Shown: positions 56,783 to 64,000, counted from the stretch's first letter. The stretch: DNA of 64,000 nt from Candidatus Marinacidobacterales bacterium (GCA_965219415.1 OZ244742.1:800001-864000); one strand, 5' to 3'. Notes: generated by a model from the letters alone, not told the origin. Program-made: numbers and translations.

Positions 56783-58242
56783 GGGGATGTCCCGCCGGAT
56801 GTTGAATTTGGGGTAGCGGCGGCTCCTTGGCCGGCCTAAGAATAGGTCTGCCAAACAACCGTCTCCAGAGGGGGACAAGGAGCCACCAATGCCTAGGAAA
56901 TCAAAGAAGCCAGTAAGAAAGCAAACGCACTCGCCTACGGGCAAGGTAGTTGGCCAAGTCGGTCAGATACTGCTACCGATGATAGCTGGGATCGCGGCCA
57001 CGAAGGCGGAACTGACGGAATGGGTGTACGAGCAAGGACTGACAGCTCTGCACCTACTGCTCAGAGAGGACGCCGAGGAGATCGCGGGGCTCAAGGGCAA
57101 GCACGAGAAGGAGCGAACTCATAACCACTGGGGGAGCACGAACGGAGAGCTGAGCTTCGGTGGTCGTCGCATCCAAGTGTCGCGACCTCGAGTTCGCTCG
57201 AAGTCGGGCGAGGAGGCGTCGCTTCCACACTTCGAAGCCTTCCGCGAAGAAGACCCGCTTCCAGAGCGAGTGTTGAATCAGATCTTGGTGGGGGTATCGA
57301 CCCGAAATTACGAATCGAGTCTGAACAAACCCGCGGCCAAGTTGAAGTCTCGTGGCACGAGTAAGAGTGCCGCCAGCCGTCACCTCGTGAGCCAGACGAC
57401 TAAGAAGCTCGAGGAATACCTGTCTCGGCGGCTAGAGGAGTTCGAGCTTGCGGCACTGATGCTGGATGGCCTTGAGGTGGCCGGACAGACCGTCGTCGTA
57501 ACTCTAGGTATCACAATAGATGGAACGAAGGTGCCCCTGGGTATATGGCTGGGCTCGACGGAGAACTCTCGGGTGTGCACCGCGATGTTGCAGGACCTTC
57601 TCGAGCGGGGCTTGCGCGTCGATGAGTCGATTCTCTGCGTAGTGGACGGAGGCAAAGGCATCCGCAAGGCACTCGTCGACGTTTTGGGGGACCTCGCGGT
57701 CATCCAAAGGTGCCAGATCCATAAACTCCGGAATCTTCGCTCGTACCTTCCCAAGTCTCGTCACGCCTACGTACTCCAGACGATGAAGGAAGCCTACAAG
57801 TGCAAGAGTGCCGACAAGGCGCGCAAGCGACTTCAGGCATTGGTGTCGTGGCTCGAGCGAAACGGCTACGACGAAGCTGCCGGAAGCCTTCGTGAAGGGA
57901 TGGAAGAGACACTCACGGTCGTGAAGCTCGCGCTGCCCGCCTTACTTCGCCAGTCTCTTGCCACGACGAACGCCATTGAGAATCTCAACGGAACCATTCG
58001 CAGAGTATCGAGAAACGTCAAGCGTTGGAAGAGTCCTTCCATGGTTCGCCGATGGACCGCTCTTGGCGTCGTCACCGCGCAGAAAAAGTTCCGGCGTATC
58101 AAAGGCTATCGCCATATGGGCGCTTTCGTTCACGCGCTTAGAAGCAAACAGAAATCTCTTGACAGCGATGAGTTTGCTGCCTAAGAGTATTCACAGGTGC
58201 CGCCGCTACCCGACCAAATTCAACAGCGGCCGGGACATCCCC
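56783..58242 (+). mobile_element. IS256-family insertion sequence, intact
   Basis: Terminal IRs GGGGATGTCCCG...TGTTGAATTTGG and 8-bp TSD CTCACACC at 56775-56782 and 58243-58250. Confidence 0.96.
56889..58184 (+). CDS. IS256-family transposase
   Basis: LMLDG, VVDGGKG, QRCQIHK and TTNAIE motifs. Confidence 0.95.
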   Translation: MPRKSKKPVRKQTHSPTGKVVGQVGQILLPMIAGIAATKAELTEWVYEQGLTALHLLLREDAEEIAGLKGKHEKERTHNHWGSTNGELSFGGRRIQVSRPRVRSKSGEEASLPHFEAFREEDPLPERVLNQILVGVSTRNYESSLNKPAAKLKSRGTSKSAASRHLVSQTTKKLEEYLSRRLEEFELAALMLDGLEVAGQTVVVTLGITIDGTKVPLGIWLGSTENSRVCTAMLQDLLERGLRVDESILCVVDGGKGIRKALVDVLGDLAVIQRCQIHKLRNLRSYLPKSRHAYVLQTMKEAYKCKSADKARKRLQALVSWLERNGYDEAAGSLREGMEETLTVVKLALPALLRQSLATTNAIENLNGTIRRVSRNVKRWKSPSMVRRWTALGVVTAQKKFRRIKGYRHMGAFVHALRSKQKSLDSDEFAA

Positions 58243-59966
58243 CTCACACCACCGCCAACGGACAGCGCGAGCCACTTGGAAGCGGACAGGGGTTGGGGAA
58301 GGCTAGCCTCTGGGTCGGCTCTCGCCGGTCATCGCTTTCTGCGGCTCGGCGCTAGCAGTGCTTGGGTCGTTTCGGGTAGTCGATCGACGACCGGGGCGCC
58401 CCTACTCGCCTCCGACCCGCACTTGGGACTCGGTATTCCCTCGGTGTGGTATGAAGTCCATCAGTCCGGCGCGGGTCTCAACGTGGCGGGAGCAAGTCTC
58501 CCCGGCCTCCCCATGGTTGTCATCGGACACAACGATCGCATCGCTTGGGGAGTCACCGCGCTCTATGCGGACGTCCAAGATCATTACGTCGAGACGATCA
58601 ACCCGTCCGACCCGGGCCAATACGCGGCGGGGGATGTCTGGGAAGACTTTCAGAGCTTTCAGGAGACCATCTCGGTAGCTGGAGGCACTCCGGTCACGCT
58701 GCCGATCCAGCATAGTCGACACGGTGTAGTCGTTTCCGATCAACCGCGGAACGGCCAAGTACTTTCCCTCCGGTGGGACGCCCCGTGGAACGGAGATAGT
58801 GCGCTCGCACTGCTAAGGTTGAACCGCGCGGGCGGTTGGTTTGAATTCACTGAGGCACTTCGGACATTAACGAGCCCCACCCTCGCTTTCCTCTACGCCG
58901 ACGTCGAAGGCAACATCGGATTCTTCCCTGCTGGCGAGGTGCCGGTTCGAACGGGGTTCGACGGAACCATGCCCGTCGACGGAGCCTCGGGGCAGTTCGA
59001 ATGGCAAGGTTATATCCCGCGCGAGATGAAGCCACTCGTCCTGAATCCCGAAGAGGGATTCATCGTTTCCGCAAACCACAAGATGGTGCCGGACGAAACG
59101 GACTACCCCTTGGGCCGGGATCAACTGGCGCCGTTCCGAGCCAACCGCATTGCGGCACTCGTCGGAGCGCGGGCTCAGCTGGGAGCCGCCGACTTCCAGG
59201 CGATCCAGGCCGATCGATACGACACCTCAACCGAGTCTCTCCTCCGATACGTGGTGGCACTGAACGTAGCCCCCGGTGATGCGAGTGACGCACAGAGTTT
59301 ATTGAGAACCTGGGACCGGAAAATGGGACGCGGCGCCGCTCCCGCACTCTATCAGGCATTCTACGTAAGGTTGCTGGCGAATACCTTTCAAGACGATGTT
59401 TCGGACGCTCTCTATCCAGATTTTTTGGACTTCGTCGAAATGGGGCATCCGGGTGGCATCTATGCGATCGTCGACGACCCCAATTCTGAATGGTGGGACA
59501 ATCGCACCACGCCTGCCGTGGAAGATCGCAAGGCAATTTTCATGCAGAGCTTCGAGGAGGCGGTCGCGCTGCTAGGCACTCGGCAAGGACAAGATCCATC
59601 TGGGTGGGACTGGGCGGCGCTGCACGGTGTATTGTTCGAGCATCCCCTAGGACAGGGGCCCCTACTCGGTTGGATATTCAATCGCGGCCCCTCACCTTTC
59701 GGCGGCTCGACCTACACCATTGCGAACGCGATGGTTTCACTCAGCGATCCGTTCGCCGCCCCTGCTGGGACGTCTTTGCGTTTAGTGATGGATGTCGGGA
59801 ATTGGAATGCGACGAGCTCGGTGATCCCCGCCGGAGCCTCGGGCCACCCTTTGAGTCCCCACTATTTCGACCAGAATGGAGACTGGCAATCGGGTCGCAA
59901 CCATCCTCTGTTATTCGATCGTGTGCAGATCGAAGGAACCGTGGAAGGCCGCCTTCTCTTGAACCC

Positions 59967-60208
59967 CTAGCAGCGCGCTGAAGAATTCACTGCACCCTGC
60001 GCGAGGAGCCATCAGCTGTCCCGAAGCCGCTTGCCGGCGAAGGGACGGCGGTGCGGGTGGGGCCCCGCCGCATTGATGAAGGAGCGAGCCCGAGTGGGCC
60101 GCCAAACTAGGTCGTTGCTAAAACTCGCCGTGGCCAGGCGGCGGGCCGACGACGGGAGGCCGAGCGAGGAGCGAGGCCAAGCGCGCGAACGCGGAGTGAG
60201 CGCGCACT
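59967..60208 (+). repeat. Modular intergenic repeat, copy E
   Basis: CTAGCAGCGCGCTGAAGAATTCACTGCACCC ... GAGTGAGCGCGCACT. Confidence 0.85.
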
Positions 60209-60214
60209 AATTCA

Positions 60215-60619
60215 TTAGGATTGGCGTCGGTCGGAAGCGTGATGATGGACTCTCAACCACCGGCCCTCACGGAACACCATCACATCGGTAACCCATCCCT
60301 CCCAGTTGAACTCGATGTCATGAACGCTGCTGTATATTTTCTGTTTGTAGTCGATGATGGCCACGTCTCCGAAAAGCGACACTTGGGGTTCTTGGACGGT
60401 CGTCTTCGAGTGCTGGAACTCGCCCAGCAAGGTCTCCAGTCGGTCTCGAACCGCTTCCCAACCGCTTGCCCGAGCGCTCACACCGGCGGGAATGATGCTC
60501 GACTCGGATCCCTGATAGTGAGCGGCAATCAAGCTGTCGAGATCGCGGCGATCGAAGGCGGAGGCGATTTGAAGAACGGCATCCAACACGTCCCGCGCTT
60601 TGTCGTCTAGCTCCGTCAA
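60215..60619 (-). CDS. NTF2/SnoaL-like (DUF4440-type) protein
   Basis: GWEAVR, FGDVA and TDVMVFREGRWLRVHHHAS motifs. Confidence 0.85.
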   Translation of the reverse strand: MTELDDKARDVLDAVLQIASAFDRRDLDSLIAAHYQGSESSIIPAGVSARASGWEAVRDRLETLLGEFQHSKTTVQEPQVSLFGDVAIIDYKQKIYSSVHDIEFNWEGWVTDVMVFREGRWLRVHHHASDRRQS

Positions 60620-60688
60620 CCTCTCCCCCCTTTCGGGCCGTCGAATCTAAAGGATTGATTCTAAATAGTATCGAGAATTATGGCAAGC

Positions 60689-60718
60689 TTGCGATGACAT
60701 TTCGGGAGTTGCTATAAT
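60689..60718 (+). promoter_or_regulatory. Sigma70 promoter with extended -10, upstream of the lysW-like and larE genes
   Basis: TTGCGA-18 nt-TATAAT with TGn before the -10. Confidence 0.65.
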
Positions 60719-60841
60719 TCCCCTCCGAACCAGTGGCAGGGATCCATAACGAGCTCATGACGTTCTATCTAAGCCCAAGAACGTCGGCGAAGCGAAATTC
60801 ATTGACCAAATTCTGTCTCATCGTGCTCCGCGGGAGAGCCC

Positions 60842-61015
60842 ATGCATCCTGATTGTCCAGAATGTGAGTCTGAGATCGAAATTGATAATCTGGATGTCGA
60901 CCAGGGTGAGGTGATTAGCTGCCCGGAGTGCGGTGTAGATCTCCGAGTGTTGAGTGTAGGCCCGATTGAATTGGAGCTGGCACCGGTCGAAGGCGGGGAA
61001 TGGGGTGAGATTTGA
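60842..61015 (+). CDS. LysW-like small acidic zinc-ribbon protein (57 aa, not in the ORF track)
   Basis: MHPDCPECESEIEIDNLDVDQGEVISCPECGVDLRVLSVGPIELELAPVEGGEWGEI*, with a GGGAGAG RBS and a TTGA overlap with larE. Confidence 0.88.
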   Translation: MHPDCPECESEIEIDNLDVDQGEVISCPECGVDLRVLSVGPIELELAPVEGGEWGEI

Positions 61016-61893
61016 AAGAACAGAACACGATGAGAGATGGAGCAGGACCGGTGGAGACGGTGGTTGAGCAAGCGGAGACGAAGCGCGCAAAGCTGGAATC
61101 GATCCTGAAGGAGATGGGCTCCGTTGTGGTGGCCTTCAGCGGCGGAGTAGATAGCGCTTACTTGGCCTATGCGGCCCACCATGCTCTCGGCGAAGCTGCG
61201 CTCGCGGTCACCGGTGAAAGCCCGAGCTACCCCGACTACCAAAGGCAAATGGCAAAGCGGATTACTTCGCAATTCGAGATTCCCCACCTCTTCGTCCAAA
61301 CGCGTGAGGTCGAAATCGAGGCCTATCGTGCCAATGGAAGCGACCGATGCTTTCACTGCAAGAACGAGTTGTACACGCGACTCACGAACTTGGCTAATGA
61401 GCGAGGTTTCGACTTCGTCGCTGACGGCTCGAACCTAGATGATTTAGGGGACTTCCGCCCGGGACGACGGGCGGCAAAGGCCTTGAGCGTGAGGAGCCCA
61501 CTCGAGGAAGCGGGTTTGACGAAGTCAGAGATCCGTTACCTCTCTCGGCAAGTCTCTCTTCCAACCGCCGACGAGCCCGCGTCAGCGTGCTTGTCCTCGC
61601 GCATTGCTTACCAGAGTCCGGTGACGCCCGAAAAGCTCAGAACGGTGGAAGACGGTGAGAGCGCACTGCGCGAGCTCGGATTTCGTCATTTTAGAGTACG
61701 CCATCACGACCAACTCGTACGCCTCGAGTTCGCACCCGAGGAAATCGCCCGCGCTTTGTCCCCAGACATGGTCCCAAAGTTGCTGACGAGGTTCAAAGAG
61801 CTCGGTTTCACGTTCGTGACGGTCGATCTCCAGGGTTACCGCACTGGAAGCCTGAACGAGGTGCTTCCTCCCTTGCAGCTGCCGGTGGTATAA
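61012..61893 (+). CDS. larE: ATP-dependent sulfur transferase LarE
   Basis: PP-loop SGGVDS, RCFHCK, DFRPG, ACLSSR, RVRHH and DLQGYRTGS motifs. Confidence 0.93.
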   Translation: MKEQNTMRDGAGPVETVVEQAETKRAKLESILKEMGSVVVAFSGGVDSAYLAYAAHHALGEAALAVTGESPSYPDYQRQMAKRITSQFEIPHLFVQTREVEIEAYRANGSDRCFHCKNELYTRLTNLANERGFDFVADGSNLDDLGDFRPGRRAAKALSVRSPLEEAGLTKSEIRYLSRQVSLPTADEPASACLSSRIAYQSPVTPEKLRTVEDGESALRELGFRHFRVRHHDQLVRLEFAPEEIARALSPDMVPKLLTRFKELGFTFVTVDLQGYRTGSLNEVLPPLQLPVV

Positions 61894-61935
61894 TCCGACC
61901 CTCCGAAACGATAAATCGGTTCTCCGTTTCAGGCG

Positions 61936-62259
61936 ATGCACTTTATGGCGATTGAGATCCGCATCGAGAGCTCCTGGCAGACTGATGATGGTGAAGGCCG
62001 TAGCATCGAGGTATTGACGTCCGAACGCGGTCACCCGGGGGAGGATCCGAGCGAGGATTCCAAGTGGTTCGCGGGTGGGGACCTCGCCGACCTCAAGCGC
62101 TATCTCACCGAACTGGTGGACCGTAAGGCGGAGTGTTTCCGGGGACGGGACCGCAGGGAATGTGCTGGTTGTTCGCGCGTAGTCAACACCGATAGCCCCA
62201 ACCCGAGGTTCCTTTGCGAAGACTGCGCCGCTTCACCCCCCTCCCCCCCAAAAAAATGA
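61936..62259 (+). CDS. Hypothetical protein with a C-terminal CxxC...CxxC motif
   Basis: CAGC...CEDC, co-oriented between larE and the next gene. Confidence 0.5.
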   Translation: MHFMAIEIRIESSWQTDDGEGRSIEVLTSERGHPGEDPSEDSKWFAGGDLADLKRYLTELVDRKAECFRGRDRRECAGCSRVVNTDSPNPRFLCEDCAASPPSPPKK

Positions 62260-63708: not shown

Positions 63709-64000
63709 TTGAGAGTCCTCTTCCTAGGAACGGGAAATGCTTTCGGAAGTGGCGGCCGAAATCCGATCTCCATCCTCGTTCAGTCCGATGAGGTGAGCAT
63801 GCTCCTCGACTGCGGCCCTTCCGCCCTTCGAATGATGAAACATTTGGATGAGTCGCCATCGTGTATCGACTTGATCTTCATCAGCCATCATCACGGGGAC
63901 CACTTCTCGGGAGTGCCTTTCCTCTTGCTCGAGTTCCAGTACCAACAGGTCCGTGATCGCAAGCTGACGGTGGTGGGGCCCGACGGCACCGAGAACAAGA
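63709..64000 (+). CDS. MBL-fold metallo-hydrolase (runs off window)
   Basis: TTG start, MRVLFLGTGNAFGSGGR...LLDCG...ISHHHGDH. Confidence 0.9.
   Translation, partial: MRVLFLGTGNAFGSGGRNPISILVQSDEVSMLLDCGPSALRMMKHLDESPSCIDLIFISHHHGDHFSGVPFLLLEFQYQQVRDRKLTVVGPDGTENK

Follow-up and report, generated by a model that had tools for sequence, protein, structure and literature searches.

Within a 64,000-nucleotide stretch of DNA from Candidatus Marinacidobacterales bacterium (GCA_965219415.1 OZ244742.1:800001-864000), the whole of which we call the window, two genes lie end to end on the plus strand at positions 60842 to 61893. The first is a small open reading frame (ORF) for an acidic, LysW-like protein of 57 amino acids (aa; 60842..61015, MHPDCPECESEIEIDNLDVDQGEVISCPECGVDLRVLSVGPIELELAPVEGGEWGEI). 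The second, which overlaps the stop codon of the first, is a 293-aa ORF read from TTG (61012..61893) for LarE, an ATP pyrophosphatase of the PP-loop kind that inserts sulfur and belongs to the [4Fe-4S] CxxC...C type. Here we report that this gene order is conserved across the class Vicinamibacteria of the Acidobacteriota, and we weigh what a protein with the fold of the amino-group carrier LysW may do beside an enzyme of nickel-pincer nucleotide (NPN) synthesis.

Results and Discussion

The pair had been singled out in an earlier note written from the sequence alone, which described an acidic 57-aa ORF with two CPEC motifs and the end GGEWGEI, a stop codon overlapping a possible larE TTG start, and a promoter belonging to the pair. 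All of these features were confirmed. The small protein begins MHPDCPEC, carries the CPEC motifs at residues 5-8 and 27-30, and holds 16 Asp and Glu residues against a single basic residue, an Arg, giving an isoelectric point of 4.05. The codons of its tail, W54-G55-E56-I57, occupy 61001..61012 (plus strand). The TGA stop (61013-61015) and the TTG of larE (61012-61014) share the tetranucleotide TTGA at 61012..61015, as read from the sequence. Because translation from an in-frame ATG at 61000 would meet a TGA at 61006, larE starts either at TTG 61012 or at the alternative ATG 61030, and from the sequence TTG 61012 is the likelier true start. In all eight loci of the window's family the last codon of the small gene ends in T before TGA (ATTTGA, TTTTGA or GCTTGA), so that the junction has the form NNT-TGA and the TTG overlaps the stop. 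In other clades the two codons overlap as GAATGA or GCATGA or stand a few bases apart, and the junction is tight throughout.

Upstream of the pair, a consensus scan returned a promoter-like site, TTGCGA-18-TATAAT, whose -10 is extended by an upstream TG (60689..60718, plus strand; 10/12 positions). The scan found two sites against 0.5 expected, and this one is kept in seven of the eight family loci. In a sister family, a TATAAT stands 13-17 nt ahead of the ATG. A Shine-Dalgarno-like GGGAGAG (60832..60838, plus strand) lies 3 nt 5' of the small-gene ATG, and a ribosome-binding site of the form GGGAGA, GGGAAA or GAGGGG is retained at the same place in 8/8 family loci. A perfect 10-bp palindrome, GCAAGCTTGC (60681-60690), overlaps the -35 element of this promoter and also that of a divergent promoter-like site for a SnoaL-like gene (60215-60619, minus strand); it too is kept in 7/8 family loci and may be an operator. 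A search of 60550-62000 for riboswitches or leader RNAs (Rfam) gave no fitting family, the sole match being a chance-level snoRNA (E 0.83).

The small ORF is a genuine gene. It occurs in contigs from four runs, each of a different study, with neither change nor indel over 60990-61015, and the GEI end was reproduced in the genus and in the independent contigs, where a canonical WGE terminus would have spoken for an ordinary LysW. Compared with orthologues, synonymous and non-synonymous codon changes stand at 13:2 for the nearest genome, 12:6 and 20:7 for others, and 29:8 and 26:8 for more distant ones; purifying selection on the gene can be seen in this pattern. The Pfam LysW ribbon PF21344 matches the protein at 52.2 bits (cut-off 27), and a profile of 36 relatives matches T. 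thermophilus LysW (3wwl) with E 1.2e-11. The AlphaFold model has a mean predicted local distance difference test score of 82.5, with residues 51-57 below 50, and its top six fold neighbours in the PDB are all LysW chains (TMq 0.70-0.75). The protein therefore has the LysW fold, an acidic Cys4 zinc ribbon with a flexible tail, and public databases annotate its relatives as 'lysine biosynthesis protein LysW'.

Set beside LysW and ArgW themselves (T. thermophilus 3wwl, 3wwn and 5eio, T. kodakarensis 5k2m, S. tokodaii 3vpb; PF21344, TIGR01206), the protein shares the Cys4 zinc-ribbon fold, a length of about 55 aa, the acidic character, the flexible C-terminal tail with a Trp and an acidic residue two positions on, and a gene directly upstream of an ATP-using, carboxylate-activating enzyme. 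It differs in that this enzyme is LarE, of the PP-loop type, whereas theirs is LysX, an ATP-grasp ligase; its tail reads E-W-G-E-I and not E-D-W-G-E; a two-residue insertion creates a D-x-D-V-D-x-G loop; and it falls into a separate clade, under the equivalog cut-off, in a genome in which no alpha-aminoadipate (AAA) lysine pathway was found. The NCBIfam equivalog TIGR01206 scores 47.6 bits, below its cut-off of 53.2, and its alignment stops at residue 56, which marks Ile57 as the extra residue. For comparison, a LysX-linked LysW reaches 77.2 bits, a larE-linked form ending DDWEE 58.2 (above the cut-off) and a form from family f2 33.7.

The host genome (8.05 Mb, 96% complete; Acidobacteriota, class Vicinamibacteria) was searched for the machinery that a LysW would need. 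No RimK/LysX-family ligase was found above the cut-off, the best score being 43 bits against a required 143.4, and no second LysW-like gene turned up. The genome does encode LysA of the diaminopimelate (DAP) route at 460.9 bits, and with LysA present and LysX absent, lysine is made by that route. In a tree of 75 LysW-like proteins, built on an alignment of only 57 columns whose deep forks are poorly supported by so few positions, the LysX-linked clade (17 lysX-linked rows plus two without neighbour) has 98/92 support, and all 45 larE-linked rows fall outside it. The LysX-linked loci end EEDWGE, the 57-aa protein GGEWGEI. The protein is thus LysW-like yet very probably not a working LysW, and not an amino-group carrier of a lysine pathway. 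The non-LysW role favoured by the earlier note fits these results, and the canonical lysX pathway elsewhere in the genome, which would have spoken against it, was not found.

The opposite view, that we are looking at a true LysW or amino-group carrier protein (AmCP) of lysine, arginine or secondary-metabolite synthesis, possibly acting after its last residue has been trimmed, draws on the fold, on the database name and on the sister-clade DDWEE members that pass TIGR01206. It is nevertheless close to refuted. Beyond the missing LysX/ArgX-type ligase and the DAP-route LysA in a 96% complete genome, none of 49 larE-linked loci carries lysX, genomes of family f2 hold a separate second LysW-like match (33-41% identity), and the examined flanks of the nine tree rows of a Trp-less Vicinamibacteria clade that is described below showed no AmCP pathway genes.

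The neighbour is, by its motifs, an ordinary NPN-pathway LarE of the three-cysteine Fe-S type, as the earlier note had proposed. TIGR00268 matches the 293-aa ORF at 313.6 bits (cut-off 150), and nothing else in the genome passes that cut-off. The PP-loop SGGVDS (61138-61155, plus strand; residues 43-48) has S43, G44, G45, D47 and S48 invariant in 40 aligned sequences, as are C113-x-x-C116 (61348-61359) and C193 (61588-61590), and the segments RC[FY]xCK and AS[AP]CL are present in 45/45 distinct partner-linked LarE. None of lysX, larA, larB and larC lies within the 64-kb window, just as had been noted; the genome as a whole, however, does hold the remaining Lar genes, all above cut-off, with the LarA N-domain (128.6 bits) and LarB (296.6 bits) on contig 3 and LarC (437.6 bits) on contig 2.

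Among the closest known systems is T. maritima LarE, with which the enzyme shares the PP-loop and the CxxC...C cysteines, the TIGR00268 match and the company of LarA, LarB and LarC in the genome. There, according to the available part of PMC9283937, three cysteines hold an oxygen-labile [4Fe-4S] cluster whose open iron takes up sulfur for insertion, by a mechanism described as TtuA-like. The systems differ in the small protein: no partner protein is mentioned in the available part of PMC9283937, and in that of PMC11796402 'accessory' and 'partner' do not occur as terms.

The pairing itself was followed through relatives. Our 41 related genomes yielded 21 orthologue loci (54-100% identity with the own locus included; 54-96% for the relatives), and larE lies directly downstream on the same strand in 20 of them. 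The exception (L035, genome G008) has lost about 800 bp, larE included, in a deletion that is clean when set against another genome of its genus; the small gene remains. In a public sample of 80 loci, taken from one-genome-per-species contigs, larE is downstream in 49, lysX (query verified as TIGR02144, 320.6 bits) in 17, neither in 14 and both in none. From 14 further Vicinamibacteria families, 12 of 18 loci have larE downstream, and in a second sample of the class 11 of 11 do, which makes 23 of 29 further class loci together. Outside the class, ten loci from other Acidobacteriota comprise two canonical LysW and LysX pairs and eight acidic ribbons with neither neighbour. Conservation of the pairing in relatives, one of the checks named in the earlier note, is thereby borne out.

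Beyond the pair, the flanking genes change from clade to clade (penicillin amidase and metallo-beta-lactamase, kinase, PD40, P-type ATPase, penicillin-binding protein), so that the unit consists of two genes. Clade by clade, the LarE tree matches the tree of the small protein. Neither a cysteine desulfurase nor another sulfur gene recurred as a third conserved gene in the flanks of 12 diverse loci. A search for longer forms gave three proteins of 105-128 aa, none of them a LysW-LarE fusion, which is weak evidence. Taken together, gene order and phylogeny show the small gene and larE as a conserved two-gene module across the Vicinamibacteria.

Several features of the flanks deserve mention in their own right. 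At 56889-59970 of the window, a Mutator-family transposase (PF00872, 145.8 bits) sits at the expected start of the penicillin-amidase gene, whose ORF covers only positions 168-674 of the 675-position profile, while the whole gene of the relatives measures 800-850 aa; the window copy looks interrupted by an insertion sequence. Just 3' of larE, a 107-aa ORF (61936-62259, MHFMAIEIRIESSW...) with a C-terminal CxxC...CxxC recurs in the sister family and matches no known family significantly. The metallo-beta-lactamase-fold gene downstream of larE in family f3 carries a similar CRRC...CxxC segment as an N-terminal fusion. The window's own metallo-beta-lactamase gene starts at 63709, behind an inserted NAGPA/SPOR gene.

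LysW-like ribbons also occur away from larE. A second Vicinamibacteria clade (CPECESDLELDGYELDVGETINCPEC..., without Trp and with a short acidic end) has 100/100 support and comprises nine tree rows (L108, L110, L111, L113, L116, L120-L122 and L124), with L143 and L144 not in the tree; its genes adjoin purM, polyprenyl synthase, STAS and SurA/PpiD genes and have no larE or lysX close by. More LysW-like ribbons with acidic tails (L148-L152, L176-L178 and L181-L185) have no link to larE. Those of Vicinamibacteria families f9 and f13 stand beside OmpA, PilZ and ABC-transporter genes, and one of them, L152, ends GHGHGH; in those of other Acidobacteriota classes (f47, f49 and f56) the tails abound in Asp, Glu and Tyr.

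Such contexts raise the question of whether the two genes are functionally linked at all, or whether a general small acidic zinc ribbon, for example a regulator or chaperone, shares the larE transcript by inheritance. Related ribbons beside purM/STAS/SurA or OmpA/PilZ/ABC genes, others, without larE, in further Acidobacteriota classes, and the one genome that retained the small gene after a clean larE deletion would suit this explanation. Against it, the adjacency persists in at least 13 Vicinamibacteria families though all other neighbours change, the stop/start overlaps are maintained in different forms, and where the pair breaks the small gene usually decays, to a remnant, by frameshifts or to absence. 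We consider a mere inherited proximity very unlikely.

What distinguishes the protein most visibly from LysW is its tail. LysW loads its substrate on the C-terminal Glu of EDWGE (Glu54). Here, W54 is invariant in 36/36 alignment rows, and in a survey of the 120 closest protein clusters the Trp is present in all 120, with Asp or Glu at Trp+2 in 115. Two residues follow the Trp in 66 clusters, three in 52, one in one and five in one, and the terminus WGE occurs in none of the 120. Trp+2, which is E56 in our protein, is homologous to the loading Glu of LysW; Glu prevails there when the position is terminal and Asp when it is penultimate. As the extra last residue, the window's family has I, F or A and its sister family S, N, K, Q, P or H; the position also reads L, M and others, and is confined to one order-level subclade. 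Other larE-linked clades end in W-x-E or place poly-Asp/Glu linkers of 20-40 residues before W-x-E. By its distribution, the extra residue is a derived, variable trait of one order and not a specific feature.

In LysW, moreover, the Glu bears its cargo on the gamma carboxyl, as the 'AmCP-gamma-' nomenclature in the available part of PMC11726168 and PDB titles of the form 'LysW-gamma-AAA' indicate. Because this is a side-chain carboxyl, an extra residue leaves the loading atom intact. The earlier note had read the tail as a blocked C-terminus, had taken the additional Ile as the telling feature, and had proposed, as one option, a carrier that needs trimming; it also asked for the conservation of the residues after WGE. 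None of the three ideas found support. The loading carboxylate stays in place as Asp or Glu in nearly all clusters of the survey, the added position is neither conserved nor widespread, and with a variable last residue and side-chain loading in LysW we rejected both the blocked end and the trimming.

An intact loading position invites the idea of a covalent carrier, in which LarE would adenylate either the Trp+2 Asp/Glu or the terminal carboxylate and a thiocarboxylate or a tethered intermediate would be formed on the small protein. The retention of the LysW loading-Glu homologue in 115/120 clusters, last or next to last, argues for it, as do the side-chain loading of LysW, with which an extra residue does not interfere, and the position of the small gene upstream of larE, which recalls lysW upstream of the ligase gene lysX. 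[quoted passage not shown] Yet the NPN substrate has no amino group by which it could be tethered, the known protein thiocarboxylates need a Gly-Gly end that is absent here, some larE-linked tails lack both the Trp and a fixed end, tail length differs by about 40 residues, and there are lineages with LarE from which the partner has disappeared, as an obligatory carrier would not be expected to do. On balance a covalent carrier of either kind is unlikely. In its narrower form, with LarE adenylating and thiolating the Trp+2 carboxylate such that the protein bears a thiocarboxylate or carries a tethered intermediate for nickel-pincer cofactor synthesis, we regard it as quite unlikely.

The acidic tail could alternatively handle metal. 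The tail, and perhaps the Cys4 site, would then buffer or deliver iron to the LarE cluster or nickel for the LarC step. Sister clades with poly-Asp/Glu tails of 20-40 residues, the GHGHGH end of the related, unlinked L152 and the P-type ATPase, HMA and ArsR genes next to the polyacidic L092 and L099 lend this some appeal. The protein of the window and its order are short-tailed, however, counting only about 4-6 acidic residues beyond the ribbon, the link of the gene is to larE and not to larC, and the metal-transport neighbours are not conserved. Sites made of carboxylates only also bind Ni and Fe weakly. A role as metal handler is therefore improbable in our eyes.

The cysteines, for their part, could bind iron in the manner of rubredoxin, so that the knuckles CPxC ... 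CPxCG would form an electron carrier that reduces the LarE cluster. Both knuckles resemble rubredoxin motifs, and weak matches to a rubrerythrin-like domain of NCBIfam (17-19 bits, all below cut-off) were obtained. The closest solved relatives are LysW chains, though, one of them deposited with Zn (3vpb title), and LysW gives the best matches in every case; the conserved acidic Trp tail would be left without a role, and sulfur insertion by LarE is not known to depend on an external reductant, as far as the available part of PMC9283937 goes. This makes the electron carrier a very improbable assignment indeed.

We instead propose, at even chances, that the 57-aa protein is a dedicated but dispensable partner of LarE, which docks by charge and directs its acidic Trp tail into the active site. 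By homology to LysW-type carriers, the negative globule of the LysW fold would bind a positive surface of LarE, and the flexible tail could then reach the active site. The Trp, the Trp+2 Asp/Glu and the terminal carboxylate might come to lie at or near the open iron of the three-cysteine [4Fe-4S] cluster, or in the pocket of the dicarboxylate substrate. The cluster, which is oxygen-labile, would thereby be stabilised or gated, or the hand-over of sulfur aided.

That the two proteins bind each other we infer from gene adjacency and from the likeness to the carriers and to TtuB. AmCP enzymes bind their acidic carrier via positive patches (PMC11726168, available part). In TtuA-TtuB of Thermus tRNA 2-thiolation, the C-terminal carboxylate of the partner coordinates the unique iron and stabilises the cluster (PMC7138817, available part). 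The resemblance to TtuB-TtuA lies in a small protein paired with a PP-loop, three-cysteine Fe-S enzyme that inserts sulfur and in a C-terminal carboxylate able to ligate and stabilise an open iron, the pairing here being one of genes. The difference lies in the small protein: TtuB has a ubiquitin-like beta-grasp fold and a Gly-Gly end and carries a thiocarboxylate, whereas here we have a zinc ribbon with a variable acidic end. Checked against the beta-grasp fold and the Gly-Gly end of the ubiquitin-like sulfur carriers TtuB, ThiS and MoaD, the protein shows neither, and no Gly-Gly occurs among the variable ends of its relatives.

A number of observations weigh against a docking partner. When 40 partner-linked LarE were compared with 12 unlinked ones, the linked enzymes were not more basic (mean net charge -1.2 versus +1.25); the two sets differ only at Y50, S178, T185, R225 and some C-terminal charges, with no docking patch identified. 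A few larE-linked tails lack any Trp (...EEEEEDDE, ...DEDEEDEE and ...EDEDEDEEE), and tail length runs from a few to about 40 acidic residues, which speaks against one precise active-site contact. The related acidic ribbons in unrelated contexts indicate that the fold need not imply work on LarE. Gene loss points the same way: all 16 genomes searched in the sister family f3 have LarE, with the partner at none of nine f3 larE loci examined, 4 of the 17 f2 genomes have a partner gene that is deleted, truncated or frameshifted, and genome G008 kept the small gene after its larE was deleted.

The f2 events comprise one 31-aa internally deleted remnant, one absence and two frameshifted copies; the remnant (L129, genome G012) and one frameshifted copy (L045, genome G010) each stand before an intact larE. 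LarE is present in all 41 related genomes, and no small gene stands upstream of the second LarE paralogues in three f2 genomes. Because the small gene is repeatedly lost while larE stays, the comparative record identifies its product as a dispensable accessory of one LarE lineage.

Conclusion

In summary, we describe a small gene for a LysW-fold protein that precedes larE in a tightly coupled and, by gene order, class-wide module. A full-text search, whose coverage leaves out most subscription journals, found no literature that links LarE with a LysW-like protein; the only co-mention, in PMC8305020, places the two in separate contexts. The name LysW, together with the passing of the NCBIfam equivalog cut-off by some members, can falsely imply an AAA lysine pathway in Vicinamibacteria. 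If the role as LarE partner holds, the LysW/AmCP fold would for the first time be seen at work beyond amino-acid and secondary-metabolite pathways. Should the thiocarboxylate reading prove true instead, the amino-group-carrier fold would gain a second, sulfur-based chemistry and a new class of protein sulfur carriers would be at hand. For the Fe-S type of LarE, all knowledge of the physiological sulfur route and of the protection of the open-iron cluster comes from in-vitro experiments with E. coli IscS, according to the available part of PMC9283937. A dedicated partner found throughout the class would offer a direct handle on both, the route by which LarE obtains its sulfur and the protection of its oxygen-labile cluster.

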